Positions 40,401-62,300 of a DNA stretch of 64,000 bases are shown in pieces. Within the stretch, counting starts at the first letter, position 1. Each line of letters starts with the position of its first letter. This stretch comes from Scenedesmus sp. PABB004. Its lineage: Eukaryota. The translations under genes and the position numbers were made by a program. The stretch lies in contig JABVCE010000014.1 in the NCBI GenBank assembly GCA_014905635.1, positions 124,001-188,000 on the forward strand. The letters run 5' to 3'. The notes below the pieces were generated by a model. It worked only from the letters and a program-made list of their open reading frames with translations, was not told where the DNA came from and did not search any database.

Positions 40401-42451
40401 GGCGGGCGGGCGCGCGCGCGCGGCGCCGCCGCGTGCGCCGCGCGCGCCGCTGTGCCGGACCTGCGGGAACTTGCGCAGCGCGAGGCCGAGCTTGCGGATG
40501 ATGTAGAGGTCAACCGTCACCGTCTCCTGCGGCGTTCAGCAGCAGGGGTTCAGCAGGGGTTCAGGGGTGCAGGTCGAGCGCGACGGGGATCGGGGCTCGG
40601 GGCTTTGACGGCCGCGGCGCGGCGGCAGCGCTGCGCGCGGGGCCAAGCCCCGCGGCGGCAGCGGGGCGCGCCTCCTCACCAGCACGCCCGGGCGCTGCAC
40701 CTTGACCGCCACCTCCTCACCCGTCTTCAGCCGCCCCCGGTACACCTGCCGGCCGGGCGCGGCGCGCGCGGGCGCGCGGGCGCGCGGGCGTGAGCGCGGG
40801 GGGCGCGCCGCGCCCCTCACGCAGCGCGCGCCCGCCGCCCTGCCCCCGTGCGCACCTGGCCGAGGCTGGCCGCCGCGATGGGCTCGGGCGTGAGGTCGGC
40901 GTAGATCTCATACCACGGCGCGCCGAGCTCGTCGTTGATGACCTGGCGCGGCGAGAGCAGGGGCGGGCAGGCGGGCGGCCGGCGGCGCGCAGGGCTGTGA
41001 GGCTGTCTGCGCGCGCAGCGGGCGGCGCGGCGAGTGCGCTCGGCGGCCGTGTGCGGCCGCGGCCCGCGCGCGCACCTGCATCGCGACGGCGCTGTCAAAC
41101 GAGGGCACCTTGTCGCAGAGCTTCTGCAGCTCGTTCATCGCCGCGGGGCTGAGGATGTCCGGCCGGATGCTGCGCGCGCGCGCCGCGGGTGCAGCGGCGG
41201 TCGGCACCGGCCGCGCGCCGGCGCCGCGCCGCCGGCGCCGCCCCGCCGCCCTCCCCCGCCGCGCGCCCCCGCGCCATTGCGCCGCCGCGCGTCGCTGCCC
41301 CTGCCGTGCCGAAAGCGGCGGCGCACCTGAGCGCCTGGCCGAGCTTGATGTAGGCTGGGCCGAGGCTGGTCACGATGTCACGCAGCTGGATCGCGCGGCG
41401 GACCTCATTGTCCTTCAGCTTGCCTGCGCGCGTGGGCGTGTGCGTGTGTGCGTGAGCGGACGCGGGCGCGGCGACCGCGCGGCGGCGCCCGCCCCGCCCC
41501 GCCCACCGCCCACGCCGGCCGCTGCTATAGCTGCGCCGCGCCGCCGCGCCGCGCCGCCGCGCCGCGCCGCGCCGCGGCGCACCGCGCGCGACGTCGCTGG
41601 CGATGCCGCCGAGGAAGGAGCCGGCGATGCCGAGCAGCTGCGTGATGCGCGTGATGACCGCGGTCGGCCGCGTGTCCCAGTATCTGCATCGACACGCGCG
41701 CGGCAGACGACGCGGGAGGGTCGGCGGGCCGCGGGCGCCCGCGCCGCGCCCGCCGCCGCGCGCCGCCGCGCGCCGCCGCCGCGCGCGCGCCCCGCCGCCG
41801 CTGCTGGGCGGGGCCGGAGCGCCCCACGCACTGGTTGATGGCGTCCGGGTCGTACGCGAGCGGCAGCGCGGCGTCGAGGCCCTCGTCCTGGGCCTCGGTC
41901 ACGAGCCGCATGCGCACGCCGGCGGACGCAAAGTCGCTCTCGTCGAGGTTGGCGCCGCGGAAGCCGGCCATGAGCACCTTGAGCTGCTCGTCCTCCTCCA
42001 TGCTGCTGCGCATCTGCGGGCGCGGCCCCACGCGCGGAGCGTGCGCGCGTTGGTGCGCGGAGCGGCGTGCGCGCGCCGGCGCGGCGCCGGCGGGCGGCCG
42101 ACCGCGACCGGCGCGCGCGGGGCGGGCGCGCGCCTCGCGCATGTTGGCCGACATCTGAGACACGGACGTGGACTGCGGCGGCGCCGCGCGGCGCACGTGT
42201 CGGCGCGGGGCAACGCCTGGCCGCGACGGCGCGCGCTGCCGCTCGCGAGGGCGCCGCCGCTGCCGCGGGCAATTGCTGCGCCTGCCGCCGCCCGCACGGG
42301 GCCGGGCGCGGCACAGGAGCACGCTGCGATCGCCGCACACCTTGGACGCCGCGCGTGCGGCCACAGCGCGGCGCGCCAGGCCCGACTGCTGCTGGCCAGG
42401 CGCGGGCGCGGCGCCCCGCCGGCCCGGCGCCTGCGCCCGCGAGCCCAGCAT
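37419..42451 (-). CDS. ABC1K6: Plastid ABC1/UbiB atypical kinase, ABC1K6-like
   Basis: LPLAYDP, LRDIVTSLGPAYIKLGQALS|IRPDILSPAAMNELQKLCDKVPSF, PIAAASLGQ|VY, VAVKVQRP, DEWAARFFEELDY, YLKQLLDTGFFHADPHPG|N, ILDFGL; about 17 introns. Subfamily assignment by recalled similarity to plant ABC1K6. Confidence 0.9.
38096..38137. repeat. (GGCAGC)n hexamer repeat encoding (LP)n in an ABC1K exon
   Basis: ggcagcggcagc... gives LQLPLPLPLPLPLPLPAP on the minus strand. Confidence 0.8.
38872..39016. repeat. Degenerate CA-rich (cacacgcc) low-complexity tract in an ABC1K intron
   Basis: Repeated ccacac/cacacgcc units. Confidence 0.7.
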
Positions 42452-42492: not shown

Positions 42493-43476
42493 GCGCGCGC
42501 CGGCTTGTGCGAGCGGGGCGAGCAGGTGCCTGGCGCTGCCTCCGTCCGCTGCCGCGTCTCCGGCTGGTGCGTCCCGTCCGAGTGGCAGCACAGCGCCTGG
42601 GCGGAGGGGGCAGGGCGAGCGGCGGCGCCGCGCGCATCGACCGCCGGCGCGCCGCGACGTGTCGGGGCGGCGCGAGCCCTGCGGCGCGGGTCATGGTGGG
42701 CGGCGCCTCGCCGCGCTGCGGCCGCCCTCCCGTGAGCCCGTTTGCTCAAGAACTGGGGCCAAGAGCTCCGCCAGCCTGTCACGCGCCGCCCTTGTCCGCG
42801 CCAGCCCGCCGGCGCGCCGCGCCGGCCGTGGCGGCCACCTGCAGCGGCCAGCAGCCGCTGGCAGCGCGCGGAGTGGCGCGGCGCGCCCCGCCAGCTGGCG
42901 CCGCCCGGCGGCGCGCCTCGGCCTGCGGGGGCAGACACACTCAAAACTGGGCCGGCGGCGCGGTGCGACGACGCGTGTCGGGGCGGCCGGCGCCAAGGCT
43001 CGCTGTTCGTGCTTTCCCCGAAAGTCCCGCGCGCTGCGGCGCAGGCAGGCGCCTCGAGCTCGCTCGTCAGCCGCGAGCTCTCCAGCTCCGCACAGCCAGC
43101 TCGGACCAGGCCGGCCAGCCCGCCGGCACGCTGCGCCGGCGTGTCGCGCCTGCCAGCGCCGCCGGCAAGCGAGCGCGGCGTGCCCGCGCGCCGCGCCCGC
43201 CTGCCCGCCGGCGCGGGCGGCGGCGCAGCCTCTCGCGTCGGCGTTGGCGAGCGGTGGAGGGCAGCAACCGAGCCAAGATAGGCGCGAGATGCGAGCCAAG
43301 GGTTCTGCGGCTTAATCTGCTGTCCAGCCGACCTCGCGCCACGCGCACGGCCCCGCACGCACTGCGGCTGCGACCCACGCCCCCGGACCCACGCCCCCGC
43401 CCCCACGCCGCCCTGCCCACCATGGCGCTCACCATGAGGACCTCCCTGGCCGGCCGCGTGGCGCCCTCGGCCGCGC
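42493..43476 (+). repeat. Block A (~984 bp): inverted duplicate of 57113-58099; ABC1K/LHCA2 upstream region plus first 18 codons of LHCA2
   Basis: For example agccaagataggcgcgagatgcgagccaagggttctgcggcttaatctgctgtccagccgacc here is the reverse complement of ~57250-57313; colinear over the whole block with scattered substitutions and indels. Confidence 0.95.
43422..43476 (+). pseudogene. Truncated LHCA2 5' stub ([18 protein letters not shown]), continuing into a chimeric 45-codon ORF ending at 43559
   Basis: Identical to the start of LHCA2 (57167-57113, minus strand), then similarity stops abruptly. Confidence 0.9.
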
Positions 43477-43496
43477 ACCTTGGACGCTGCGCGTGC

Positions 43497-43788
43497 GGCC
43501 ACAGCGCTGCGGGGGTGCCGACGCGCACCGACCCCGGCCGGCGTGTACATCAAGCATAAGCAGCTTCAGCAGGGCGGCCGCGCACGGGCTCTGACGGGCG
43601 GGCGGCGGCGTGTGCCGTGCGGCAAGTGAGAGTATGTTGCCTCCCACTCCCGCTCGCTCGGTCAGCGTTCCAGCAACCGATCGGTCCGCCGCGCGCGCCA
43701 ATGCGGCGTCCGCGCGCCACTTGCTAAAGTACAGCCGTCGGCAAGGCGGGCGCCGCCCGCATGGGGGCTGTGCAGGCGCGGCGCGCGC
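43497..43788 (+). repeat. Block C (~292 bp): inverted duplicate of 58102-58394
   Basis: ggccacagcgctgcgggggtgccgacgcgcaccgaccccggccggcgtgtacatcaagcataagcagcttcagcaggg... is the reverse complement of 58394 downward; diverged with indels in the middle. Confidence 0.93.
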
Positions 43789-44004
43789 GCCGCCGCCGCC
43801 CCCGCGCGCGCTCGCTGCCGGGCGCGGCACGCGGCCAATGGTGCAAACAAAGAACCGGTGCAGAGGTTTGGGGTACAGAGAGAGGGGGAGAAAGGAGAGA
43901 GGGCCGCACCCCGACGCGCGGCGCCCTGCCACGGCCTGCGGCGCGCGGGCGCGGCCGCCGCGCTCGGCCGCGTGGCCCGCCCCGCCCCGGCCGCGTGGCC
44001 CGGC

Positions 44005-44639
44005 TCAGCTGGGCGGCCAGAAGCTCGACGCGACCTTGATGCCGGACAGGCGGATGCCCAGCACGATCGTGAGGCCGACGATGATGCAGCAGACGTCGCC
44101 GAAGAGGCTGTCGCCCATGAGGTTGTCCAGCAGGCTCCACACGCCACGCCAATAGATGATCACGCCCGTCACCGCGGTCAGCTGCGAGGGCGCCGCGCGG
44201 CGGGCGGGCGCGGGTGGGCGCGTGCTGCGGCGTGCGCTGGCGCGTCCCGCGGCCGCGGGGACGCGGGACGCGCGCGCACCGTGACCGCCACGCTCTGCAG
44301 GTCGGCCTCGAGCTTGTGCTCAAACTCCAGCAGCAGCTCCTGGGGCACCTCCAGCTCCAGCTGCTGCTCCCCGAGCGCCGGCTCCAGCCCGCCGGCGTCG
44401 TGCGCCGCCGCCGCCGCCGCTGCGGGCGCGCCGCCGTCGCTGCCATCGCTCGCCGGCGCTGCGGACCTGGTGGCCGGGGGCAGCGGGCTGCTGGCGACGG
44501 CGCGCACGCGCAGGCCCGCGCGGCCGGGCCGGGCGCTGCTGCGGGCTGGCCGGGGCGCCGCTGCCCGCCCGGGCTCGCGGTGCGGCCGTGCCGAGAGCTG
44601 GGGCGTCTGGTGGCGGTGCGAGGCGAGGCCCGCGGCCAT
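44005..44639 (-). CDS. Small putative plastid membrane protein with two TM helices and a WRGVWSLLD (Fuseless-like) motif
   Basis: Transit-peptide-like N-terminus (GLRVRAVAS), then LEADLQSVAVT|LTAVTGVIIYWRGVWSLLDNLMGDSLFGDVCCIIVGLTIVLGIRLSG...FWPPS*; one GT-AG intron. Confidence 0.7.
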
Positions 44640-45025
44640 CAGGCGCGGCGGGGCGAGGCTCGGCCGGGATGCTGACGGCCGCAGGCGCTCGCCTGCGCGC
44701 TGTCGCGGCGCGCGGCCCGGCTTGGCTGCGCCGTCTGGGCACGCTGCGCGTCGGGGTGCGCGCGGGAAGCAGGGGAGGCAGGGTTGAGGGCAGTTGAGGC
44801 TCGCAAGACCGCGCTGCTGCCCTCGGCCGGGCGTGGAGCTGGGGCCGCCACAACTGGCCCTCGCTGCCCACCGCTGGCACCCAGGAGCTCCCTTTGGCAC
44901 GCTCACAGCTGCGGCCTGCCGATTGCCGCCGCCGCCGCCGCAGCCGCCGCCGCCCGCGGCTGACGCTGCCGCCGCAGCCCGGTGCAGCCGGTGCAGCCGC
45001 GGCAGCCGGCGGCCCCTGACGCTGC

Positions 45026-46528
45026 ATGCTGGGCGCGGTCCGCCCGGCCGGCCTGCGCGCCGCGCGCTCCGGCGCGGCCATGGCGGCGCGGCCCCGCGGC
45101 GGCGGCCGCGCGCTGGCTGCGGGTGCGGGCGGCGCCGGCGGCGCGGCGCCGCCGTACAAGCCCACCAACATCGCCGACGCCGAGGGCTCGCCCTTCTTTG
45201 AGCTGGGGCTCAAGGAAGTGCAGGAGGGGGTGAGCGCGCGGCGTGCCGCGCCTGCCGGCGGCCGCAGGCCCCCGGGTGCGTGCCCCGCGACACGCCGCGC
45301 GCGACCGCCGGCGGCCCGCGCGCCGCGCGCAGGCGGGCCGCGTGCGCGTGCGGCAGCACGTCAACCCGCTGTCCAGCGCGTTCCAGACGCCCACGCCGGC
45401 GCCCGACTGGCGGGCGTCGTACGCGGACCCGACGCTGCCGCTCTTTGTCGACTGCGGCTGCGGCCCTGGGCGCTTCCTGCTGCTGCTCGCGCGCCACGAC
45501 GGCCGCGCGGGGCGGGACATGAACTACCTGGGCCTGGAAATCCGCCAGCCGGTGCGCCGCGCGACGGCCGCGGCGGCGCAGCAGCGCCGGCAGCGGCGCG
45601 GCCGCCGCGCAGCGCCCCCACCCCCAGCCCGCGCGCGCCGGCGCGCCGCACTCACCTCGCCCGCCGCCGCTGCCGCCGGCGCGGGCGCGGGCGGCAGCTC
45701 GTCGAGCGCGCGAACAAATGGGCGGCGGAGCTGGGGCTGGGCGGGCGCGTGCGGTACGTGTTCACCAACGTGTCGGTCTCCCTGGCGGGCCTGCTGGCGA
45801 GCTACCCCGGCCCAGTCGCCGGCCTGTCCGCGCAGTTCCCCGACCCCATGTTCAAGCGCCGCCACCGCAAGCGCCGCATGGTGCAGGCCAGCGTCGTGCA
45901 GGCGGCGCGCGAGCTGCTCGTCCCCGGCGGTGCGCCGCGGCGCACGGCGCGCGACGGGGCCGGGCGCCGCGCGGCCGCGCCGCTGCGTGCCTCTCGACCG
46001 CCGCGCCGCGCCCGACGCCGCCGCGGCCGCCGCCGCGCCGCTGCCGCGGCCGCCGCAGGCACGGTGTTCCTGCAGTCGGACGTCTACGGCGCGGCGGTGG
46101 CGATGCGGGACGAGTTTGAGCAGCACGCGGGCGACGTGCTGGAGCTCTCGCCGCTGCACGCGAGCGCGCGCGTCTTCCAGTGGACGCCGGAGCAGGCGGC
46201 GGCCGAGGCGGCCGCCGCGGCGCAGGAGCAGCAGCGCCAGCGCGCGGCGGCACGGCAGCGGCGCCAGGGCGGCGGCGCACAGGACGGTGCGCAGGGCGGC
46301 GCGGAGCAGCAGGACGGCGGCGCGGAGCAGCAGCAGGACGAGGCGAGCGAGGAGCCGGACGGCGGCGCGGAGCAGTCGCAGCAGGACGGCGGCGAGGCAG
46401 CGTTTGTGTCGCGCTGGGCCGCCGGCGGCTGGCTCGCCGACAACCCGCTCGGCGTGCCCACCGAGCGCGAGCATTACGTGGCCGCCACGGGCGGGCGTGT
46501 GTATCGGGTGCTGCTCGTCAAGCGCTGA
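45026..46528 (+). CDS. trmB: tRNA (guanine-N7)-methyltransferase TrmB, bacterial/organellar type
   Basis: RVRVRQHVNPL, VDCGCGPGRFLL, NYLGLEIRQP|LV, FPDPMFKRRHRKRRMVQ, VFLQSDV, NPLGVPTEREHYV; 3 introns. Confidence 0.92.
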   Translation: MLGAVRPAGLRAARSGAAMAARPRGGGRALAAGAGGAGGAAPPYKPTNIADAEGSPFFELGLKEVQEGVSARRAAPAGGRRPPGACPATRRARPPAARAPRAGGPRARAAARQPAVQRVPDAHAGARLAGVVRGPDAAALCRLRLRPWALPAAARAPRRPRGAGHELPGPGNPPAGAPRDGRGGAAAPAAARPPRSAPTPSPRAPARRTHLARRRCRRRGRGRQLVERANKWAAELGLGGRVRYVFTNVSVSLAGLLASYPGPVAGLSAQFPDPMFKRRHRKRRMVQASVVQAARELLVPGGAPRRTARDGAGRRAAAPLRASRPPRRARRRRGRRRAAAAAAAGTVFLQSDVYGAAVAMRDEFEQHAGDVLELSPLHASARVFQWTPEQAAAEAAAAAQEQQRQRAAARQRRQGGGAQDGAQGGAEQQDGGAEQQQDEASEEPDGGAEQSQQDGGEAAFVSRWAAGGWLADNPLGVPTEREHYVAATGGRVYRVLLVKR

Positions 46529-47515
46529 GCACACCGATTAAAGCTTATTCTGCCCGACCGACCCCGCCATGCTGCCGTTGCCGCCCCCAAAATGGTGCCG
46601 CTGCTGCCGACCTGGCTGAATTCAGCCGCGGCCAAACGAGGGGGCGCGCTAAGGAAAACCCCCGCCCGCCGCCCGCGGGCGGCGCCGGCGTGCGCACGAG
46701 TGCACGGCCTCGCGCGCGCGGGCCGCGGACAAAATGCTTGGCCGTGGGGTCGAATCCCCAGGCCAGGCGCAAAGGAGAAGAAGCGGGCCCGCCGACGCGG
46801 CCGCGCCGCCCTGCAATCGTGGCGGCCCGGCCCGCCGCCGCCCGCCCAGCCGCCCGCCCCCCCCCCCCCCCCGCACAGGCCTGGCCGCTGCGCAGGCCGC
46901 TCCGACCTCCCAGTCTAAACCGCCCTGACTAGACCGTCGACAACGGCAGCTGCATAACAGCCGTGATGCAGCGCTCGTGATGCAGCGCTCGCCGCCCGGT
47001 CGCGCGAAGCAGCGCGCCGGTCCGTGCACGGCACACTCACGCGCCAGCGCAGCAGCATAACAGCACAGCAGCACAGCAGCACAGCAGCACCGGGCCCAGC
47101 CGCCCGGCCGCCGGCACGCGGCCCCTCGGCCTCCCTCGCCCCGCCCTCTGCGCGCGCGGGCAGCGCTGCGGCGCCCTGGCGCCCCGCGTGCGATCAGGCC
47201 CTGAGCGTTTCTTCAGCCGCCGCAGCACAAGATTCAGTCAGTCAGTCGGGTGCCAACCCTGTGTGTGGGTGTGTGCGTGGGTATGCCGCCGCGTGCGCTG
47301 CGCCGCACGGCGTGGCATGGCGCGGCGCCCGCGCGGGCGGGCGCGCGCGCTGCTGCTAGGTTGGGTGCGGCCGGCACGCTCAGGGTGCGGCGGCCGTGCA
47401 GACAGAAAAGGCAGGGCCGTGGTCGCAGTGCGGACGCCCGACCGGATCAGGGGGCCCGGCCGGCGCGGGCCGCGCGCCGGCTGGCGCCGCAGGTGCAGCG
47501 GCTGTTCACGTGGGC

Positions 47516-48104
47516 TCAGCGCCGGCTGGGGCTGAGGCTCTTGCTCTCCATCTCCTCCACCAGGCGGTCCAGCTCCGGCCCCGCGCCGATCGCCTCGAGC
47601 TCCTGCGGCGTCGGCAGCGGCGCGTGAGCGCCCGCCGCCCCGCGCCGCGCGCCCCGCGCGGCGCGCGCGCGCGCGCGCGCGCACGCGCACGCGCACGCGC
47701 ACGAGCACACACACGCGCACGGCCGCACCTGCGGGCCGAGGAAGAGCCCCCACGGCACGCCGCCGTACTTCTCGCTGTGGTGCAGCCGGTGCGCGACGGT
47801 CACGCGCTTCATGTACGGCAGCTCCGCGATCGGCCCGGTCGGGAAGCGCTTGTGCACGAGGCCGTCGTGCACAAACATGTAGGCGATGCCAAAGAGCGTG
47901 ATGCCGAGCCCCGCGCCAAACGCGAGCGAGCCGGGCAGCGTGGGCGAGAGGAAGCCGTAGAGGCAGAGACCGATCGCGGGCGCGGCGTTGACGAGCGCGT
48001 ACACGTCGTTGGCCTGGCGGCGGGACGGGCGGACGGCAGGGGCGGGAGGGCGAGGGAGGGAGGGAGTGAGAGGCCGCGGCGGCCACGGGCGTGGCGGCGC
48101 AGCG

Positions 48105-48145
<41 letters not shown>

Positions 48146-49123
48146 AGAGAGCGCGGCGGCGGCGGCGGTTGGCGCACCTCGAACGGGCCGACGCGCGGCT
48201 CGTGGTGGCTCTTGTGCAGCGACCACCCGGGCGCAAAGTCGTGCCAGAGCGCGCGGTGCGCCCAGCGCGCCCACATCTCCATGCCCACCACGCCGCCGAC
48301 GACGAGCGCGAGCGTGCCTGCGCGCGCGCGGCGGTGGCGGCGGCGTCAGGTTGGCGCGCGGGGGCGCGGGGCGCGCGCCGCCGCCGCCGGGAGACTCGCG
48401 GAGAGGCGAGGGGCGGCGGCCGCGGCTGCAGCAGCAGGGCGCGCACCGGCCATGTCGATCCAGGGGAACGCGGCGTCGGGGCCGGCCATGTGGCGGCTAA
48501 ACTTGTAGTACGTCGCGAGCACCGCGAGCGCCGACACGCCCGTCGTCGCCGCGATGGCGCTGACCTGGTACGTCAGCTGCTGCCTGCGCGGCGGCGGCGC
48601 GCGGCGGCCGCGGCGGCTCGGACGGGCGCGGCGCGCGTGCGTGCGCGCGCTGCGGCGCTGCCCGCGGCGCTGCCCACCTGCGGCGCGCCAGCCGCCGCGT
48701 GGCGGTGCGCTTGGCGAACTCCAGGTTCTCCGCCAGCTGCTGCACGTCCGCGCCCAGCGACTGCTGCGGCTCCTGCGGCGCGGTGCGGCGGGGCGGCGGG
48801 CGGCGCGGCGGCCAGGGTGGGCGCTCGCCCGGCGGCCGGCGGCGCGGCCGGCGCGCAGGGGGAGCGTCCCACACGGCGGACAAGCTGCATCCGGGCGCGC
48901 GCGCCGCGCTGGCGCCGCATTGTGAGCTCGGGCCGGTGCGCACCGCGCGTTCATCTGCTGCCGCCCGCGCGGCCACGCCCGCGCCCGGCCGGCAGCGGCG
49001 GTCGGCGCTGGAGCCTGGGCAGGGTGCCAGGGCAGCTACCAGCAGCCTCCGCTGGGCGCCGGGCCCGCAGCGGGACAGCAGCGCCTGGTGCGCTGCGGCC
49101 GGGTGGCTGGCCAGCGCCGCCAT
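47516..49123 (-). CDS. CHYB: Beta-carotene 3-hydroxylase (non-heme di-iron, CHYB/BCH/CrtZ)
   Basis: VGMEMWARWAHRALWH, LHKSHHEPRVGPFE|ANDVYA, GLGITLFGIAYMFVHDGLVHKRFPTGPIA, AHRLHHSEKYGGVPWGLFLGPQ|EL; His boxes intact. Confidence 0.96.
48106..48150. repeat. (GA)n microsatellite in a CHYB intron
   Basis: gagagagaga... run; a similar tract lies at ~60987-61032 in a starch synthase intron. Confidence 0.85.
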
Positions 49124-49568
49124 GCCGCTCCGCCGGCTGCTGCGTGCCCGCGGGCGAACTGCGCGACGACGACGGGCCGAGCTGTGGCCGCCGCGCGCGG
49201 GTTGGCGGGCGCGGGCGCTGGTCCACGCGCAGCGCGTGGCCACGACGCTGGCGACGCTGGCGACGCGCTGGCGACGCTGGCGAGTGTCCGATCTGAGCGA
49301 CGCACCGCAGGGGCACGCAGCGCGGGCCTGCGCGGGTCACTGGCTCGGACCGCAGCTGACAATCGCCGCACGCAGCCAGGCTCGCTGCCCGGCGCCTTGT
49401 CAGTCACTTCCCCTCCCGCCCGCCCTCCCAGCCGCAATTGGCCCCGTCAACTCCCCGATCCGCCCCAGATCCGCGCCGCCGCGCGCGCCGGCCGACGGCG
49501 CCGCGCTCGACGCCCGCCGCCGCCGCGCAGCTGCCGCCGCAGCGGCCCGCTCCCCGGCGCGCCGCCGC

Positions 49569-49996
49569 ATGATGCAGGCGCTGGCCGCCGCAGCGGCCGC
49601 GCTGGGGCCGCTGGAGGGCGCGGCGCTCGCTGGCGGCGCGGCGCTGCTCGCGCTGCCGCGGCCGCGGAGCCTGCTCATCGGCGCGCTCGACACGGTCCTC
49701 GCCACGCTGCTGCTGCTGTGCCTGGTCGCCGCCCTGCTGGCGCTGCCGCTCGGTGCGGCACACCGCAGCGGCGCAGCCGGCGCAGCGCCGGCGCAGCCGG
49801 CGCGCCGGCGGCGCTGCCGTGTGTGCAGCGGCGCGCGCCACCACCGACGGCGCCACCGCCACCACCACTGCCCCCGCCGCACGCAGGCGCGCTGTATTTG
49901 GCGCTCCGGGGCGCGGCGTTCGTGCTGCGCTCCGCGGCCACCCTGCCGCGCGTGGCGGAGCTGGGCGCCGCGCTGACGGCGCTCGTCAAGTCGTAG
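49569..49996 (+). CDS. Small hydrophobic membrane protein (~95 aa), 2 exons
   Basis: MMQALAAA...LLIGALDTVLATLLLLCLVAALLALPLG|ALYLALRGAAFVLRSAATLPRVAELGAALTALVKS*; intron gtgcgg...cgcag ~49753-49886. Confidence 0.6.
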
Positions 49997-50491
49997 GCGC
50001 AGCGGCGCGGGCCCCGCGCGCACCGCGCACGACGGCAGGTGTATATGCACTGCGGGTATGCGCGTGGGCCGCCCCGATTGATTGGGTGATTGGTCGCCGG
50101 CGGCGGCGGCGCCTGCGCGCGCCGCGCCGCGTCACTGAGCAGGCCGTTGGAACGCGGGCCGCGTTCGAGCAGGACTTGAGGCGTGTGTGTTGCGTTCTTG
50201 TGTGTTCGGACAAGCTGTGCTTGTCCGAACCGCTCCTGCTCTCAGTTCAGCCGGGGGCCGGCGGCCCATGCGTGTGCGTGACTGATTGTGTTATGCGCGT
50301 TATGCGTGTGCCCGCGTGCGCACGGGCTGAGCACGTGCGCGCTGTGCCTGCGCGCGCTGCCGCGCCCTGGCGCCGCTCGCGGTGTGGATGTGGGTGTGCG
50401 TGCGCCAGCTGCAGCTGGGCAGGCGCGCGCCGCAGAGGCGCGCCCGGGCCTGCGCACAGCTGTGGCACTGACGTGTGTTTAACAAGCTCGG

Positions 50492-53400
50492 TCACAGCGC
50501 CGCGCGGCCGCGCACCGAGGCAGGCGCCGCGTCGACCGACGCGCCGCCGGCCTCCCCAGCGGCGGCCGCCGGCGCGTCCCCGCCCGCGTCGCCGTCGCGT
50601 GCGTCGCCCCAGTCGCCCGCGTCGTCCCAAGCAAAGGTCTCATCGCCGGGCAGCTGCGGCCCGGGCGGCTGCAGACTTGGGCCCACCACCAGATTCTGCG
50701 CGGGCGACGCCTCGGCGAGCGGCGCCACGGCGCCCGCGCTGTGCCGCGGCGGCTGTCGCGGCGACGCCGGCCGCGCCGCGGCGTCCTGCAGGCCCAGCGC
50801 GCGCGTCTGCCGGCTCAGCCGCGGGCCCGCCGCCGCGGCGGGGGCGGTCGCAGCCCAGGCCAGCGCGGGCGCCGCAGGCGCGCCGCCGCCGCCGTCGGCC
50901 AGCTGGGGCGCCGAGCGGCGCGCCAGTCGCCGCAGCAGCGGCACGCGGTCGGCCGCGCCCGCGCCCGCACCTGCGGCGACCACGTCCGCCGACGCGCAGC
51001 GTGGCATCGCCGCGAGCGGCGACGGCAGCGGCCGCCCACTGCCGCCGCCCACCGGGCCGTCGCTGGCCCAGCCCTGGAGGCCGCCGCCGCCGGGCTCCGC
51101 GCAGAGCAGCTGGACGTCGTCACGGCTGACTGTTCTGCTGCTGCCCCTGCTGACCGAGCCGGCGTCGCGGGCGAGCGCCCGTCCCGGCGGCGCCTCGGCC
51201 GTGGAGCGGGCGCTGCCCGCGGCGCTGCCGAGGCGGCTGCTGCCAGCGCTGGTGCTGCCGAGCAGGCGCCGCAACACGCCGAGCAGCCCGCCCCGGCTGG
51301 GCGGCGGCGGCCGCTGCTCGCCGCCTGCCCCCGCCTGCCCGACCGCGTTCCGCCTCGCCGCTGTCGTCATGCTCTGTGCTCCGCCGGCGGCGGCCGGCAG
51401 CGACCAGCCCGGCTGCACGCGCGTCGCGCGGGCGGCCTCCGCGCCGCCAGTGGCGAGCGCCGCGGCCTCGGCCCAGCGCGCGGGCACGGCGGGCGCCCTG
51501 TTGCCCGCCGCCGCCGCCGCGGCGGCCGCCTCGAGCTGCGAGAGGCGGCGCGGCCGGAAGGGCTCGCAAGCCGGCAGCGGCAGCTGCCGCGCCTGGTCGT
51601 CCAGCCCCTCTGCCGTCAGCCGCGCCGAGCCTGGCAGCTGCAACTCGTGTCCCGCGCAGCCCCGCGGCTGCTGCTCCTCCTGCGCCGGCCACCGGTCCCC
51701 CTTTCGCTCCTGCTCGACGCCCTGCTGGTCTTCCGCGCCGGCGCTCGCCCGCTCGCCCGCCGCCGCCGGCTCCTCCCCGAGCTCCTGCGACGGCGCCGGC
51801 TGCGCTCGAGCGCGCTCGGCAGCCTCGTTCACCTGCAGGAGCGGCGCTGCCTCCTCCTCAACCCGGGCGCGCAGTCACACCACGACCGCCCACGCCAGCA
51901 GCGCCGCGGCCAGCAGGCCGCCGAGCACGCCGCCGGCGGGCGCGAGCCACCGCAGCGCGGGCAGCGCCGCGCCGCCGCGCGGCGTGGGCGCCCGTGGCGG
52001 CGGCGCGGGCGGCCGTGGCGGCGCGGGCGCCTCTGGGAAGCCGCGCTGCGGACCGCCGTCGCCAGGGCGGCAGGCCACGCCGCCCCAGCAGGAGGCGTTG
52101 ACGCCGCGGCCAGGCACGAACGGACCCCAGACACTGATGCTGCCGTCGTCCCCGGCGGGCGCGCCGCTGCCCGCCGCGCCGCCGCGAGCTGGTCCGCCGC
52201 TGCCGTCCGCGCTGCCCCACTCCACCACCGCGACGCGGCCCACGACCGGCAGCAGCTCGGCGCCGGCGGCCGCGGCCCCGCCGCCGCCGCTCGCGCCCGG
52301 CCGCGCGCCGGCCAGCCGCCTGCTGGGTGGCGCCCCGGGGCGCCACGCGTCGTCGTCAAACGGGTCGGGCGCCAGCGCCAGGCCGCCGCTCCAGTCGTAT
52401 ACGCCGCTGAACCCAGGGCCCGGATAGCGCGGGCTCAGCAGTGTGAGCGCGCCGCGCACCGCCGGCGCGAGCGTGGCGCCCGCGCCGCCGCCCGCGCCGC
52501 CGCCCGCGGGGCCCGCCGCCGCCGGCGCGGCGGCGCACCGCGTGAACAGGAGGGTGCCGGCGACCTCGAGACCTCGTAAACGCGCCGGCCGCGCCGGCCG
52601 CGGGGTCGAACGTCCAGTTGATCGCGCGGCGCAAACTGAAGTTGCCCGCCACGGGCACGGCCAGCCCGCCCGCCAGCCCGCCGCCGAGGCGCGTGAACGC
52701 GAGGCTGCCGTTGAGCGCGGCGCGGCGCGCCGCGCTCGCGCCGGCGGGCATCAGCGCCGGCCCCAGCGGCGTCACCGTCACGCCTGCGCGGCGCGGCGTG
52801 GGGCGCGGCGTGGGGCCGGGGCGTGGCTGCGCCCGCGTCGGCCGCCGCCGCGCGCGTCGGCCAGCAGCGCCGCCTCGCGCTCGGCCACGGCCGGGCAGCG
52901 CGGCCGCCGGGCAGCGAGCGGAGCGGCCGGGATCTTCGCCGCCGGGCTGCCTGAGCGCGCAGGGCTTGAGCGAGGCAGCAGCCAGGCAGTGGCGGCGCGC
53001 ACCTGACAGGCTGAGATTGCCTCCAATGACCATGGCTGCCGAGCCGCCGGCTGCAGGGGCGTCTGGCGCAGGAGGTGGTGGCGACGCGTCCGGAGGCGGT
53101 GATGCCAGCGGGCTTGTTGGCGGCGGCGGTGGCGACTCGGGCTGCGGCGGTGGAGGGGCGTCGGGGGCAGGAGGTGGCAGCCACGCGTCCGGCCGGGGTG
53201 ATGCCAGCGGGCTTGTTGGCGGCGGCGGTGGCGACTCGGGCTGCGGCGGTGGAGGGGCGTCGGGGGCAGGAGGCGGCGGCGACGCGTCCGGAGGCGGTGA
53301 TGCCAGCGGGCTTGTTGGCGGCGGTGGCGACTCGGGCTGCGGCGGTGGAGGGGCGTCGGGGGCAGGAGGTGGCGGCGACGCGTCCGGAGGCGGTGATGCC

Positions 53401-54698
53401 AGCGGGCTTGGCGGCGGGCTCGCCGGCGCGGGCGGCGGCGGGCTCGGGGGAGGCGGTGGCGGCACCGGCGGCAGCGGAGGCGACGGCCTGCAGGTCAGCA
53501 GCGGCAGCGGCGCGCGCGGTCAGGCGCGGTCAGGCACGGCAGGCTGGCGGTGGGGCGCGCGAGGTCAGCTCAACTTGCGCGGCCGCCCGCGGCGGCCCCC
53601 GGCCGCGCCGCGCCGCGCACACTCACGGCGGCGGCCTTTGCGGCGGCGGCGGGGAGGGCGGCGGCGGCGGCGACAGCGGGGTGGAGATGCTGCCGTCGTG
53701 GGTGCCGCAGACCGCGGTCAGTTTGATCTTGCTGGGGTTGTAGCACGGCGTGCCGCACGACGACGCCTGGACCTGCTTGCACAGCACCGTCACAAAGCTG
53801 CGGCCGCGGCGCGCGCGGCGCGCGGCGCGCGGCCCGCGCGGCGCCGCGGCCGCGGCGCGCGCACGTGCGGCAGGTGGTCGTCGCCGCGCCGGCGCTGCAG
53901 AGGTAGTTGATGCTGGGGCAGGCGCCGCCGAGGCTGAGGCACACGCGCGAGCCGTTGGCGGTCGAGAGGTCGAGGCGGGTCGTGAGGTTCAGCACCCTGC
54001 TCGCGCCCGGCGCGGCGTAGGTCACGCCGCCCGTGACGTCGCTCGCGCCGCCGCCGGCGCTCGCGTTGTACAGCGTCGCCGACGCGACGCTGCCGGCGCA
54101 CGCCGTGCCTGCGCCGCATGGCGCGGCGCGGCGGGCTCGCGCGCGGCGCGGCGCGGCGCGGCCGGCCGGGTGCGCGCCCGCCCGCCTGCCCGCCGCGCGC
54201 GGCCGCGGCTGCGCAGCCGCGGCATGCGGCGGCCCACCCATCTCCAGGCCCATGCCCAGCACGTCCACGCGCTCCAGGCTCCACGCCGTCGTTGGGCACA
54301 GGCTCGCGAGGCTGCCACCGGCCTGCACGAGCGTGAAGCACGCCACTGCCCCCGCGCCGCTCGTCCACTGCAGGCTGACGCCAAACGTGCTCGCGCACTC
54401 CCCGCTCACGTCCGCCTCCCACGGCCACGCCACCGTCGCGGCCGCGAGGCGGCGCAGCGGCCTGCGACGGTTGCGGCGGTTGCGACGGTTGCAGCGCAGT
54501 TGCGACGGTTGCGGCGCGGCGGCTGCGCGCGGCACGAGCCCGCGGTCGCGGGCCGCGCGCCGGCCGGCGGCGCGCAGCCGCCCACCCGCGATCGCCGCCG
54601 GGCGCCGGCGGCGGCGTCCGTTCTGCGGCGGCGGCGCCGCTCGCGAGCGCGCAGGCGGCCAGCAGCAGCGCCAGCCGCCGCGCCGCTGCCGCGCGCAT
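50492..54698 (-). CDS. Pherophorin-domain, proline-rich, single-pass membrane glycoprotein; 3' half interrupted (possibly partly pseudogenised)
   Basis: Signal peptide RRLALLLAACALASGAAA; pherophorin-like VLNLTTRLDLSTANGSRVCLSLGGACPSINYLC; SPn repeats; TM GGVLGGLLAAALLAWAVVV; frame change near 52570 and in-frame TGA at 51875-51877. Confidence 0.65.
53056..53410. repeat. Coding tandem repeat, ~96-99 bp unit, ~3.6 copies (PPPPQPESPPPPPTSPLASPPPDASPPPPAPDA)
   Basis: Recurring gacgcgtccggaggcggtgatgccagcgggcttgttggcggcggcggtggcgactcgggctgcggcggtggaggggcgtc. Confidence 0.9.
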
Positions 54699-54988
54699 CG
54701 CTGCCGGCGGTCGTGCGGCGCCGCGCGGATGCCGGGCGCGCCCAGATGCGCGAGGCCTTCGAACGAGGGCCCCCGTGCGCCCCTCGTGGGCGAGCTGCGC
54801 CGCCGACGGCGGCCGCAGCCGGCGGCCGCGTCGGCGGCGCCGCGAGCGCCACGCGGGCGCGCCGGTCGCGCGAGCGATCGGCGCCCCTCTTTCCCCCCGC
54901 TGCCTTGTGCGCCAGTCGCTGGCACGGGCCGGCGCAAGCCGCCGCTGGCGCGGCGCGCGCGGCGGTGAACCCCGGGGAGACGCACAGG

Positions 54989-54993
54989 TTACA
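54989..54993 (-). promoter_or_regulatory. Putative TGTAA poly(A) signal of LHCA2
   Basis: TTACA on + strand about 265 nt downstream of the LHCA2 stop. Confidence 0.55.
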
Positions 54994-55256
54994 ACACACG
55001 CCGGCGACACTCTTGTCTTGGTACAGAGGCGCGGTGGGTGGGCAGCGCGCGCGCCCACACGCGCTCGCCCGCTGCCTAGAGCCTAGACCACGACCGGGGC
55101 GCTGCCGGCTGCAGCGCCCGCGCCAGCGGAGCGCCGGGGGCCAAAACCTGGCGCGGCGGCGGCCGCCGGGGGCCGCCGCCGCAAAACTGCTGCGCCGCCG
55201 CACGCCTGCGGCGCGGCGCGCCCGCAGGGCAGCAGACGGGGGCCACGGGTGCCCGC

Positions 55257-57167
55257 TTACTCCGCCTTCCAGGGCTGGTTCCAGGGGAACAGCGGCACGC
55301 TCTCGGGCTTGCCCTTGTTGAGGCTCTTGGTGGCTGCGCGCGCGGCGCGGCGGCGGGCGGTGAGCGGGCGCTGGCGCGGGGCCGCGGGCGCCGCCGCGAG
55401 CTGGCCGGCGGTGAGCGGGGCCGCGGGCTGCTGCCGGCCGCGACGCTGAGCGCGCGCGCGCGCACCCTCGATGATGATGGGCCACACGCACAGCAGGGCG
55501 ACGGTGACGCAGGTCTCCTTGCCCACGGAGCTGGTGTAGACTGCGGCGGGGCGGCGGGGCGGGGCGGCGCGCGCGTCGGCCGCGGGCTGCTGCGCCGTCG
55601 CCGCCGCCGCCGCCGCCGGCCCTCCCGCCGGCCGCTGCCGCCCGCGCACTCCTGGCTGCCCGGCCCTCCACACCCTCCAGCCCACGCCCCCCCCCTCTGC
55701 CGCGCATCCAGCTAGCTGGCTACTCACTGTTGTTGTTCCAGGGGTCGGCGATGTGGTCCTTGAGGCAGTCGATCGGGCCCTTGCCGCGCACCGCGGCCTG
55801 GCTGCAGAAGCCAATGAACGCGAGCATCGCGAGCCGCCCGTTCTTGAGCTCGTTCAGCTTCGTCTTCTCGCTGCGCATGCCCATGGGGTCAAACGGGAAG
55901 CTGCCCAGGAAGCCGGTCTGCGCGCGGCGGCACCAGGCGCGGGCGCGGCGTGGGCGCGGTGCGCGTGGCGCCTGCCGCCGCCGCCGCCGCCGCCTGCGCC
56001 GGCCGCCGCCTGCTGCCCCCGCTCCGCTCCGCTGCGCTCCGCTCCAGCCTCCAGCTGCCGCCGCCGCAGGCTCTGCCGGCTGCCGCGCCCGCCCGCCGCC
56101 TCCTGGCGCCGCCGCCGCCCGTGCCGCCGCGCCGCCTGTCCAGCCCTTCCCCGGCGCGGGCTCGCACCTCGCCGGTCTTCTTGTAGCCCTCGTAGCGCTT
56201 GCCCTCCAGGATGGCCATGACCACGACCTCGATCGCCAGCAGCACCTTGTTGTCAATCGGGTACTCCTGCAAGGGAGGAGAGGAGGCGCGGGGCGCGCGT
56301 GGGCGCGCGGGCCCCCCGCGGCCAGCCGCTGCTGGCCGGGCCGCAGCACGGGGCGCCGCGGCTGAGGGCGGCGCTGCCGTGACACGAGCGCGGCGGCGGC
56401 AGCTGCTGGCTGCGCCGCCCCGGGCGGCCGCGATCTGGCGCTCCTGCCGCCGCCGGCGCCGCCGGCCAGCTGCCCGCCGCTGCCGCTGCCGCCGCCGGCC
56501 AGCCGCCCGCCGCCGCCGCCGCCGCGCGCGCGCGCGCGCCGCGCAGAGATCGCGCCGCGCTCGCCGCCGGTCTGCCCGCGGCCGGCGCCGCCCCGCGTGG
56601 CGCCGCCGTCGCCGCGCCCCCGCTGCGCGCGTGCGCACCTCGGCGCCCGCGAGCCAGAACTTGGGGAGGCCGACCAGGTCGGTGAAGAGGATGCCCGCGA
56701 CCGCGGCCATCGCCCAGCGGCCGTTGGTGAGCTCGCCCTCGCGGTAATACTTCAGGTTCTCCGGGTTGGTGCCCAGGCGCAGCGGGTCGAAGCCTGGGGC
56801 GTCGCCGGCGCGCGGCGGGGCGTCGCCGGCGCAGCGCGCGGCGCGATCGCCGCGCCGCGCTGCTGCGCTGGCGCCGCCGCGCGCCGCCGCGGCCGCGCCG
56901 GCGCCGGCAGCCCCCGGCAGCGCGCACCGTAGTCGCCCAGCATGGAGCCGTCCAGGTGCTTGGGCGGGGTGGCCCCGGGGTACCTGCGCGGGGCGGGAGG
57001 GGCGTTGATGGGCCTGGATGGCCCCCGCCCGCGCTGCACCGGGATCTGGGCGCGGCGACCGCGGCTCACCAGGTGGGGCGGGACGCGGCGCGCACCACCA
57101 CGCTGCTGCGGCGCGCGGCCGAGGGCGCCACGCGGCCGGCCAGGGAGGTCCTCATGGTGAGCGCCAT
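55257..57167 (-). CDS. LHCA2: Photosystem I light-harvesting protein, chlorophyte Lhca2 type (extra C-terminal TM helix)
   Basis: [80 protein letters not shown] and C-terminal [24 protein letters not shown]...[10 protein letters not shown] characteristic of Chlamydomonas-type Lhca2; 6 introns. Confidence 0.93.
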
Positions 57168-58099
57168 GGTGGGCGGGGCGGCGTGGGGGCGGGGGCGTGG
57201 GTCCGTGGGTCGCAGCCGCGTCGCACGCGGGGCCGTGCGCGCGGCGCGAGGTCGGCTGGACAGCAGATTAAGCCGCAGAACCCTTGGCTCGCATCTCGCG
57301 CCTATCTTGGCTCGGTTGCTGCCCTCCACCGCTCGCCAACGCCGACGCGAGAGGCTGCGCCGCCGCCCGCGCCGGCGGGCAGGCGGGCGCGGCGCGCGGG
57401 CGCGCCTCGCCGCGCCGCGCTCGCTTGCCGGCGGCGCTGGCCGGCGCGACACGCCGGCGCAGGCGTGCCGGCGCGCTGGCCGGCCTGGTCCGAGCTGGCT
57501 GTGCGGAGCTGGAGAGCTCGCGGCTGACGAGCGAGCTCGAGGCGCCCGCCTGCGCCGCAGCGCGCGGGACTTTCGGGGAAAGCACGACCAGCGAGCCTTG
57601 GCGCCGGCCGCCCCGACACGCGTCGTCGCACCGCGCCGCCGCTCCAGTTTGGAGTGTGTCTGCCCCCAGGCGGACCCGCGCCGCCGGGTGGGCGCCAGCC
57701 GGCGGAGCGCGCCGCGCCACTCCGCGCGCTGCCAGCGGCTGCTGGCCGCTGCAGGTGGCCGCCACGGCCGGCGCGGCGCGCCGGCGGGCTGGCGCGGACA
57801 AGGGCGGCGCGTGGCAGGCTGGCGGAGCTCTGGGCCCCAGTTCTTGAGCAAGCGAGCTCAGGGGCGGGCGGCCGCAGCGCGGCGAGGCGCCGCCCACCAC
57901 GACCCGCGCCGCAGGGCTCGCGCCGCCCCGACACGTCGCGGCGCGCCGGCGGTCGATGCGCGCGGCGCCGCCGCTCGCCCTGCCCCTCCGCCCAGGCGCT
58001 GTGCTGCCACTCGGACGGGACGCACCAGCCAGAGACGCGGCAGCGCACGGAGGCAGCGCCAGGCACCTGCTCGCCCCGCTCGCACCAGCCGGCGCGCGC
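57113..58099 (-). repeat. Block A' (inverted copy of 42493-43476), containing the LHCA2 promoter region and start
   Basis: Reverse-complement colinearity with block A. Confidence 0.95.
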
Positions 58100-58101
58100 A
58101 T

Positions 58102-58394
58102 GCGCGCGCCGTGTCTGCACAGCCCCCATGCGGGCGCGCCCGCCTTGCCGCGACACGACGGCTGTACTCTAGCGAGTGGCGCGCGGACGCCGCATTGGCG
58201 CGCGCGGCGGACTCTGATCGGCTGCCTGGAACGCTGACCAAAAGCGGGAGGCAACATACTCTCGGTTGCCGCGCGGCACACGCCGCCGCCCGCCCGTCAG
58301 AGCCCGTGCGCGGCCGCCCTGCTGAAGCTGCTTATGCTTGATGTACACGCCGGCCGGGGTCGGTGCGCGTCGGCACCCCCGCAGCGCTGTGGCC
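58102..58394 (-). repeat. Block C' (inverted copy of 43497-43788)
   Basis: Reverse-complement colinearity with block C. Confidence 0.93.
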
Positions 58395-59350: not shown

Positions 59351-62300
59351 TCAGGCGTAGGGCGCGTCGAGCAGCGCCCACTCAAAGATCCGCTCGTACG
59401 CCTCCGCCGCGCCGTTCCAGCTCGAGTCGCGCTCCATGCCGCGCCGCTGGATGCCCTCAAAGTCCTGCGCGGCGCGGCGCGGCGCGGGTGCGGGGTAAGG
59501 ACGCGGGCGCGCCGGCGCGCCGGCAGCCGCCCGCGTGCAGCAGGGCCTCCGCTGCGCGTGCCAGCCCCACCGCCGCGCGTGCCAGCCCCACCGCCGCGCC
59601 GCGCCGCGCCGCGGCGCACCTTGGGATAGTCGCGCAGCGTCGCGAGCGCGAGGCCGGTCGCGTGCATCAGCCCCGCGGCGTCGCAGCTGCCAAACGTCCA
59701 GCCCGTGCCGCTCGGGCCGGTGGGGTCAAAGTCGATGACCGTGTCGCGCAGCCCGCCTGGGCGCGCGCGCGGCGGCAGCGGGGGCGCGCGTCGGCGCGGG
59801 CAGCGGCGCGGGGGCCGGAGGAGCGCGCACGCCCCGCGCGGCGCGGCGCGGCGCGGCGCGGCGCGGCGCGGCGGCGGGGGGGCCAGGCGGGCAGCGGCTA
59901 GCTGCGAGCAGCGGCGGGCCGGGCGCACCCGTCGCGTGCGCCACGGGCACGGTGCCGTAGGCCATCGCGTAGAGCTGGTTGAGGCCGCACGGCTCAAACC
60001 TGGCGGCACGCGGCGGCGCGGGCGGCGGCGCGGTCGGCACGCGCGGCGTGCGCACGCGCGGCGCCGCCGCACGCAACCGGCGCGCCACGGCCCCGGGCCC
60101 GGCGAGCCGCCCCAGGCGGCCGGCCGGCCGGCCAGGCGGGGCCGCGCACCTGCTGGGCATGAGCAGGATGTCGGCGGCGGCGGTGATCTTGTGGCTCATC
60201 GCCACGTTGAACCCCACCCACCCGCGCGCCTGGTCGCGGTACGCCGCCTCCAGCCAGCGCAGCCCGTTCTGCGCGCGGCGGCGGCGGCAGGGAGCGCGGC
60301 GGCGGCGGGGCGACGGCGCGGCGTGGGCGGGGCGCGCCGCCGCGGCGAGGCGGCAGCGGGCGCGCGCGCGGCGTCGGCGGCGGCGCCGTCGGCCGCACCT
60401 CGAGGTCTGTCGTGCCGGTGCCGAGGCACACGAGCTGCACGCCCTGGCTCATCATCCACGGCGCCGCCTGCAGCACGATGTCGGCGCCCTTCTGGTAGTC
60501 GAGGCGGCCAATGAAGGCGATGAGCGGGACGTCGGGGTTGACCGGCAGCCCCAGCTCCGCCTGCAGCGCCGCCTTGCACGCCGCCTTGCCCGCCTTGAAG
60601 CTGCTCGCGTCGTAGTTGACCGGCAGGTGCTGGTCGACCGCGGGGTTCCAGTCCCTGCGCGGCCACGGGCGGCGCGGTCGGCGTCGGCGCTCGCGCCGCC
60701 CGGGGCGCAGCCGCCCGCGGCCGGCGCAGTGCTGCGCCCCTGCCGGCCCCGCGCGCGCGCGTCGCGCGCGCCGCGGCTCACGAGTCGTCGATGCCGTTGA
60801 CGATGCCGTTGAGCACGGGGCCGCGCGCGTTGAGCATCCCCTCCATGCCCCACCCGCCGAGCCAGGTGCGGATCTCCTCCGCGTAGCCGGGGCTCACCGT
60901 CACGATGCGGTCGGCGACCGCGATGCCCGCCTGCGCGCCGCGGGGCGGGCGGTGTGCGCGTGTGCGTGCGCGGGCGCGCGCGTCAGGGAGAGAAGGAAGA
61001 GAGAGAGAGAGAGTGAGGGGGGGAGAGAGAGTGTGTGAGGAGCTGCGCGCGGCGCGGGCCGGCGCGGCGCGCGCGCCTTGAGCGTGTTGACAGAGCGCCC
61101 CTCCTCCGCGTACGAGCCCTGCCGCAGGTGCGGGGGGTACTGGTACTCCAGCGCGTCTGCGCGGCGCGCGGCGCGGGCGCGGGCGTGGGCGCGGGCGTGG
61201 GCGCGGGCGGGGGCGTGGGCGCGGGCGCGCGCGCGGCGCGGCAGGGTGCGCGGCCGGCCGCCGGCGGCGCGGGCGGCACTCACGGTACCAGTCGGCCGGC
61301 AGGCCGAGCGAGGCGTAGGTGGAGGGCGGGAAGACGCCCTGGTGGCGCAGGTTGTGGATGGCCATGACGCTGCGCGCGCGCTCGTACACGCCGTGCGGGC
61401 GGTACTTGGCCGCCAGGTACACCGGCACGAGCGCGGCGTGCCAGTCGTTGGCGATGAACACGCAGTCCTGCCCGTACAGGCCGTCCGGGCCGAGCGGCAG
61501 GTTGAGCGGCGCCTCGAGGCCCGCGAGGCTCAGCAGCATGTAGCGGAACTGCGCGGCGGCGCGGCAGCGGCGGCGCGGCGCGGCGGCGGCGGCTGTGAGC
61601 GGGCGGGCGGCTCGGGGCGGGCTGCACCGCGGCTGCCGGCGCCAGCGGCCGCCGTTTGCCGCTGCCGCTGCCACCGCTGTCGCTGCCACGGCTGCCGCTG
61701 CTGCCGCTGCTGCCGCTGCTGCCGCTGCTGCCGCTGCTGCCGCCGCCGCCGCTGCCGCTGCCGCTGCTGCCACGCGCCGCGCGCGGGCGCGCCGCACCTG
61801 GTTGTCGCCGTACACGCCGTGCTTGTCGGCGTAGATGCCGCCGGGGCGCGGGAAGGCGGGGTGGTCGACAAACACCCAGTCGACGCCGCGGTGCTCGTGG
61901 TGGAAGAAGCCCACCTCGGCGCCCATGATGTCAAGACGCATCTGGGCGCGGCGCGGCGCGGCGCGGCGCGGCGGCGCGAGCGGGCGGGGCGCGGCGGGGT
62001 GAGCGGGCGGGGCGGGGCGAGCGGGCGTGCGGGCCGGGCAGGGCAGGCAGGCGGCGGGGGCGTGCGCGCGGCGGGGGCGCAGCGCGGCGGGGGCGCTGCG
62101 CGTGCGCGCACCCCGGTGTCGATGGCCTCGGGGTAGTTTGCGTAGCGCGGCGTGACGACCATGACGCGGTGCCCGCGCGCCGCGAGCGCCTGCGGCAGGC
62201 TGCCCAGCACGTCGCCGAGGCCGCCCGTCTTGCTCCAGGGCGCGACCTGCGCGGCGGGTGGCGGCGCGCCGCCCCGCGTCGGGGCTGCGCCGCTGCTGCA

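Follow-up and report, generated by a model that had tools for sequence, protein, structure and literature searches.

A paired-duplication inversion separating ABC1K from LHCA2 in the green alga Scenedesmus sp. PABB004

How can two genes that stand head-to-head across one intergenic region be split by a chromosomal break without either of them being lost? The question is raised by a 64-kb stretch of nuclear DNA from the green alga Scenedesmus sp. PABB004 (contig JABVCE010000014.1; hereafter the window, GC 78.6%), in which the gene for an ABC1 atypical kinase (ABC1K) and the intact LHCA2 gene lie at opposite ends of an inverted segment, with DNA from each breakpoint present in two inverted copies. 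All results reported here rest on the assembled sequence of the window and on its comparison with relatives, and they lead us to regard a single complex repair event as the probable origin of the inversion.

Repeats and joints at the two ends

Self-BLASTN of the window returned two inverted pairs, one matching 42493-43479 to 58099-57110 (999 columns, 94.7% identity, 1555 bits) and the other 43497-43788 to 58394-58102 (302 columns, 89.7% identity, 400 bits); the next inverted or dispersed match, at 103 bits, is low-complexity background. We call the left-hand blocks A and C and their right-hand counterparts A' and C', the last also written D. The final three bases of A in the BLAST match are part of a templated insert (t), hence A stops at 43476. 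With the ends placed exactly (Table 1) the lengths of the parts sum without remainder, and the arrangement is A-t-C-[13,324 nt]-A'-AT-C'. Both pairs and their order had been proposed in a preliminary description of this DNA and are upheld by the self-comparison and the exact partition. A nested transposon or a hairpin is rejected, as the repeat order does not fit either. With X and Y for the flanks, I for the interior and rc for reverse complement, the order reads X-A-rc(D)-rc(I)-rc(A)-D-Y, which is that of the staggered-break or paired-duplication inversion class (dupINVdup). The previously given size of about 13.3 kb is correct for the unique part, whereas the inverted segment with its duplicated ends measures 14.6 kb (43497-58099).

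Block A is gene-specific DNA. It begins 41 nt upstream of the putative ABC1K start and reaches as far as codon 19 of LHCA2. Blocks A and C each occur twice in the window: a rare-word scan for further copies found no third copy of either within the 64 kb and no other long complex duplication in the window except the 99-nt tandem array of a pherophorin-like gene, and a nucleotide search with A and C over all 29 loci of a metagenome scan gave no match. When the left A is joined to the reversed interior, LHCA2 exon 1 is restored in frame (33 codons, followed by a GT donor), which places the left break inside that exon. The 18-codon LHCA2 stub noted in the preliminary description is real: 43422-43476 is identical to the intact gene and continues as a 45-codon chimeric frame that stops at 43559.

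The spacer between A and C had been passed over earlier, and it is templated. Its 20 nt match 42339-42358 at 19 positions (next best site, 16 of 20), and the wider stretch 43470-43511 agrees with 42332-42373, in the same orientation, at 39/42 positions, against 30/42 at the second-best site. The template belongs to the ABC1K coding sequence and sits 123 nt beyond the edge of A; measured back from the break, the distance is 1,137 nt. The insert hands over to C at an exact 11-nt word, GGCCACAGCGC. Counting both strands, the window has only three occurrences of this word, one in the template and one at the outer end of each of C and C'. For random joints in 40-61 kb, the probability of sharing at least 11 nt is 3e-4, and for 12 nt it is 1.6e-4. 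The insert-to-C joint is strong evidence of microhomology-primed synthesis, with which the other two joints are only compatible; the templated spacer and the rare word together point to microhomology-primed template switching rather than plain end joining. The staggered-break inversion originally proposed thus stands as regards the order and the inverted duplications at both ends, while blunt joining is an incomplete account of joints that hold microhomology and a templated insert.

The right joint carries two inserted bases at the centre of a 22-nt perfect palindrome. Palindromes with arms of at least 9 nt number 26 in the window, this one among them, and given so many comparable cases we make no claim of a hairpin origin. 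The same two bases create an ATG immediately beyond the upstream region left orphaned on the ABC1K side, and with it a frame of 45 codons (58100-58237, + strand); that it equals the left stub frame in length is probably chance.

Table 1. Positions, in window coordinates, of the repeats, joints and genes discussed
Feature	Position	Strand	Basis or remark
A (984 nt): left copy of ABC1K/LHCA2 intergenic region and first 55 nt of LHCA2	42493-43476	+	self-comparison
t: 20-nt templated insert, left junction	43477-43496	+	19/20 identical to 42339-42358
C (292 nt): inverted copy of right-hand block	43497-43788	+	self-comparison; first 121 nt identical to C'
Unique inverted interior, 13,324 nt	43789-57112	.	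exact partition
A' (987 nt): right, inverted copy of A	57113-58099	-	self-comparison
C' or D (293 nt): right copy, in presumed ancestral position and orientation	58102-58394	+	self-comparison
Template of junction insert: 20 nt plus 11-nt microhomology, about codons 28-38 of ABC1K	42339-42369	+	
Right junction: inserted bases 58100-58101 within palindrome	58090-58111	.	
ABC1K	37420-42451	-	Pfam ABC1; homologues; putative start, 41 nt outside A
LHCA2 stub, 18 codons, running into 45-codon chimeric frame across t and C	43422-43559	+	
Fuseless-like (WRGVW) gene, orthologue of Cz12g15220	44005-44639	-	Pfam Fuseless E=0.0017, below cut-off
TrmB-type methyltransferase gene	45080-46528	+	Pfam Methyltransf_4; ends read from sequence
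Beta-carotene hydroxylase-like gene (CHYb)	47516-49123	-	Pfam FA_hydroxylase below cut-off; C-terminal part of model P0072; putative start
Pherophorin-like gene region, approximate bounds	50500-54700	-	Pfam Pherophorin
Intact LHCA2 gene, exon 1 beginning within A'	55257-57167	-	best single-domain PDB matches are LHCA2 chains
Starch synthase I gene (SS1)	59351-62722	-	Pfam Glyco_transf_5; best PDB match starch synthase I, E=3e-32; putative start

Genes of the locus and their order in relatives

The ABC1 kinase (minus strand) lies left of A and starch synthase I right of C'; the interior holds the Fuseless-like gene, the TrmB-type methyltransferase, the CHYb-like gene, a small frame, the pherophorin-like region and LHCA2. 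The window's kinase is 92% identical to that of Tetradesmus over 658 columns and, in a quick tree (the only version made), clusters with Scenedesmaceae in a 6-row clade with support 100. A homologue search with one ABC1K exon as query placed Cre04.g215400, Cz12g16050 and OEZ85_002788 as orthologues among the best 120 of 759 matches. The earlier label ABC1K6 is a provisional name for this gene, and the name CHYb for 47516-49123 is likewise putative, given for its motifs.

Evidence that ABC1K and LHCA2 were neighbours before the inversion comes from several relatives. The two genes are consecutive in all three assemblies of T. obliquus (WIA14251/2, WIA34426/7, SZX79187/8), and in Chromochloris they are JGI models 3212 and 3213 (Chrzof1) with no listed gene between them and CHYb (Cz12g16080) at the next number, according to the supplement of PMC7161124. 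Order taken from accession or model numbers carries no strand. Strand is given by L002, one of the eight metagenome loci analysed (L001-L008; the other 21 of the 29 were weak partial matches, with E 3e-5 or worse, and were dropped), which belongs to a Sphaeropleales lineage outside Scenedesmaceae: here LHCA2 and ABC1K lie head-to-head, with candidate starts 436 nt apart. A further locus, L003, differs from L002 by one base and is not independent of it. The uninverted neighbourhood at the left breakpoint is therefore seen in Tetradesmus (3/3), Chromochloris and L002/L003, and the ancestral head-to-head pair put forward in the preliminary description is borne out, with exceptions by numbering in Scenedesmus NREL 46B-D3, Hariotina and the Chlamydomonadales. 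In the last of these, represented by Volvox africanus and Chlamydomonas UWO 241, the LHCA2 and ABC1K numbers are far apart.

On the right-hand side, Chromochloris has two genes between the Fuseless-like gene (Cz12g15220) and starch synthase I (Cz12g15250). In L002 the Fuseless-like gene and SS1 share a strand, 6.7 kb apart, and WDR75 lies between them; the gene convergent with SS1 there is trmB. The exact ancestral adjacency at this end is suggested by the window itself, because C is continuous with the interior and C' with Y.

Seen more broadly, LHCA2, ABC1K, the Fuseless-like gene, WDR75, starch synthase I, trmB and CHYb form an old cluster, kept together and reshuffled more than once between Sphaeropleales lineages (L002, 3400-20171; Chromochloris, Cz12g15220-Cz12g16080). 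In C. reinhardtii, starch synthase I and CHYb are presumably numbered near ABC1K Cre04.g215400. Six gene ids sought in the supplements of PMC6913025 were not present there.

Several smaller observations concern single genes. The Fuseless-like gene, weak as its Pfam match is, has a single C-terminal domain, WRGVW, whose conservation among green algae is strong (91 representatives). The pherophorin-like gene holds four copies of the 99-nt unit at 53018-53482, encoding a proline-rich linker. A public gene model of 1412 aa (P0072, filed under Scenedesmus sp. PABB004) joins LHCA2, the pherophorin-like region and CHYb in one protein; it is collinear with these regions of the window (47516-57167), and the fusion looks like an annotation error. 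Left of ABC1K, window positions 9000-36300 contain genes for a peptidase S28, an MFS transporter, a dienelactone hydrolase-like protein, V-ATPase subunit a, an isocitrate/isopropylmalate dehydrogenase, a WD40 protein and an INSIG-like protein, and a gene at 34.7-36.2 kb (heme-oxygenase-like by eye, with no Pfam match) follows ABC1K here, in L002 and in L005.

Origin of the inversion

The reading that we consider probable is one complex repair event that converted X-A-I-D-Y into X-A-t-rc(D)-rc(I)-rc(A)-D-Y. The arrangement, the seamless reconstruction of LHCA2 and the three joints are properties of the assembly; the structure is real there, and probably in the chromosome as well. A 3' end would have stopped within LHCA2 exon 1 at 43476, and about 7 nt of imperfect homology would have let it prime again in the ABC1K coding sequence, 1,137 nt further back, to copy 20-31 nt; the 11-nt microhomology would then have taken it onto the other strand, where D has its far end, and synthesis may have run back through D, the interior and A (14.6 kb) before rejoining D at a GC-repeat word that both ends share. 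One event with three such switches is the simplest account. [quoted passage not shown] The other route, staggered nicks 1 kb and 0.3 kb apart sealed by synthesis-dependent, polymerase-theta-type joining, is possible with still less confidence: the available passages of the fly study that uses the nick model acknowledge the length of DNA to be unwound as a difficulty (PMC1885836), while Dualen insertions of Chlamydomonas leave duplications with a median of 900 bp according to the sections available, so that such nick spacing is possible in green algae (PMC9977147). Although the break would have hit LHCA2, the whole intergenic region and the start of the exon would have been copied, leaving ABC1K and LHCA2 each with its upstream region, and the product presumably survived because no gene lost anything.

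If so, the copies would have drifted by about 3% since the event. A and A' differ by 29 substitutions in 977 aligned columns (3.0%) and by 8 indels, one of the substitutions (at 43477) lying in the insert; C and C' differ by 10 substitutions in 283 columns (3.5%) and by 7 indels. The substitution rates of A and C are not different (Fisher p=0.70), and one age for both duplications fits. An identical tract of 121 nt opens C (p=0.0014 against uniform placement) and another of 159 nt lies in the LHCA2-proximal part of A (p=0.05); gene conversion or constraint could account for both. Differences toward AT fall 7:1, left to right, in the LHCA2-proximal half and 8:5 in the other (Fisher p=0.34), and do not show a reciprocal decay of the two promoter halves.

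A number of observations weigh against a single, cleanly dated event. At the joints, the entry from A into the insert relies on about 7 nt of homology with one mismatch; the 12-nt GC word common to the parental ends of the right joint has 29 copies in the window, and it has not collapsed to one copy, unlike in simple microhomology joining. Between the copies, indels are denser in C (7/283) than in A (8/977; p=0.054), and the differences are clustered (dispersion p=0.007 in A and 0.025 in C), which means that later conversion or selection blurs the dating. Among relatives, LHCA2 and ABC1K of Scenedesmus NREL 46B-D3 lie on the same contig (291,631 nt), yet seven accessions apart (KAF6256350.1, KAF6256357.1), about the gap of the window's derived order and different from sister Tetradesmus. 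This order is read from protein ids and accessions without coordinates, and may reflect an independent rearrangement, extra gene models or non-positional numbering; breakpoint reuse is possible. In Hariotina the two numbers are far apart (P001488 and P008944). Finally, the preliminary description had predicted a Fuseless-like (WRGVW) gene convergent with SS1; in none of Chromochloris, L001, L002 and L006 does it adjoin and converge with SS1, and in L002, L006 and, weakly, L001 it is WDR75 that lies downstream of it.

A two-step history, in our judgement unlikely, would begin with an insertion that carried a long direct duplication, after which homologous recombination between inverted repeats flipped the block. 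The intermediates would have had t and rc(D) between direct copies of A, or rc(t)-rc(A) between copies of D, and since both hold the three joints, sequence alone fails to discriminate. The flanking duplications of Chlamydomonas Dualen elements (long interspersed nuclear elements, LINEs), with the median already given from PMC9977147, come near the 984 nt of A, and the long identical tracts fit exchange between copies. Those tracts are equally explained by constraint, however, no poly(A) or repeat tail is seen on C by eye, and two rare events would be required.

Less likely again is that the event joined two homologous chromosomes in a zygote or diploid, in which case the copies would be allelic variants and the inversion could be of very recent date. 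We give it weight because diploidy is common in the family and haplotypes of T. obliquus are as divergent as A and A': PMC13315243 reports about a quarter of Scenedesmaceae strains as diploid, apparently through fusion of divergent cells, and bioRxiv 2022.11.30.518549 puts haplotypes of diploid Tetradesmus obliquus mostly at 94.5-96.5% identity, a range that includes the 94.7% of A/A'. The coding stub, unchanged over 55 nt, would also suit this reading, but zero changes in 55 nt are expected at 3% divergence too. Repair of both breaks from an inverted homologue is a narrower path than a sister-strand event, and the LHCA2-proximal AT-ward differences are biased 7:1 to the left copy, where decay is to be expected (p=0.07, a weak signal).

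We think it very unlikely that the structure is an assembly artefact, whether a haplotype misjoin or chimeric reads, although diploidy occurs in the family (PMC13315243). Three separate false joins on overlaps of at most 12 nt would be needed, and one of these would have to add a 20-nt copy carrying a substitution; every flanking gene is collinear with proteins of relatives. The earlier argument that the divergence of the copies speaks against an assembly duplication is sound for chimeric molecules, which predict identical copies rather than 39 substitutions and 15 indels, and does not extend to a two-haplotype origin, with which divergence is compatible. Least probable of all is that C is a small mobile element whose opposite-orientation copies recombined or transposed aberrantly: transposons lie at the breakpoints of 70.6% of the inversions and translocations in one strain of Chlamydomonas mutation-accumulation lines (PMC9977147), but within the 64 kb C occurs just twice, and it shows no special fold (z=0.47), no Rfam match and no terminal repeats or target-site duplication visible by eye, and the proposal leaves the gene-specific A and the equal divergence of A and C unexplained.

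Whichever route produced it, the geometry permits further flipping, as recombination between the copies of A or of C would return the genes, all of them whole, to their old order. No recombinase family was found among the 71 + 146 reading frames of the window that were scanned, short frames not being included; with repeats this long and diverged, we reject a programmed invertible segment. There is only a slim chance that the locus is a live, lossless switch, in which a crossover in A or C followed by deletion between the direct repeats so formed would restore the ancestral locus, every state leaving the genes intact. Were it true, transcription from the orphan left LHCA2 promoter would still pass along the stub and on into C, in antisense direction to the Fuseless-like gene, and the NREL 46B-D3 gap would reflect a block toggling repeatedly in Scenedesmaceae and moving LHCA2 and CHYb relative to ABC1K and SS1. 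A role of C as a two-way terminator is also rejected, as candidate poly(A) words, by the motifs of Chlamydomonas, lie nearer both genes and outside C.

Comparison with known inversions and significance

Events of this class are already familiar in flies and humans, and the locus is a clear example of them rather than of a new mechanism. In the Drosophila melanogaster group, single-copy breakpoint DNA is likewise duplicated in inverted orientation, and such duplications are reported at 17 of 29 inversions, from both breakpoints in six, with sizes of 46 bp to 1.9 kb (PMC1885836); inversion 2q of D. mojavensis has copies of 1 kb and 4.3 kb (PMC3355041). The model proposed in PMC1885836 is nick fill-in with non-homologous joining, and a word search there gave no mention of filler, whereas the algal locus has a templated insert and microhomologies at one joint, a segment of only 13 kb and a green-algal host. 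The human dupINVdup class shares the duplication-inversion-duplication topology and joints with microhomology of at least 3 nt and inserted sequence (PMC5338099; PMC6286558), which are attributed to MMBIR/FoSTeS (PMC6286558). In one such case a single allele carries both a disrupted gene copy and a complete one, as with LHCA2 here; a case with reported sizes is de novo with duplications of about 280 kb, as against 1 kb and 0.3 kb, 3% diverged, in the alga. Closer in phylogeny is Chlamydomonas reinhardtii, where PMC9977147 describes rearrangements with duplications of about 900 bp from staggered nicks; there the duplicated stretches are direct repeats on either side of a LINE, and Crypton or Replitron elements sit at the breaks of the inversions, whereas no transposable element was recognised at the breaks here (C examined by eye, by fold and in Rfam). 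Our literature search, whose coverage excluded most subscription journals, found no green-algal case of the dupINVdup structure.

For the biology of these algae, the locus records, base by base, how a compact algal genome can split an old head-to-head pair without loss, by copying the whole upstream region, and its templated insert informs which repair route produces such inversions. The two diverged copies that resulted offer a natural means of testing whether a single bidirectional promoter makes up the LHCA2/ABC1K spacer.

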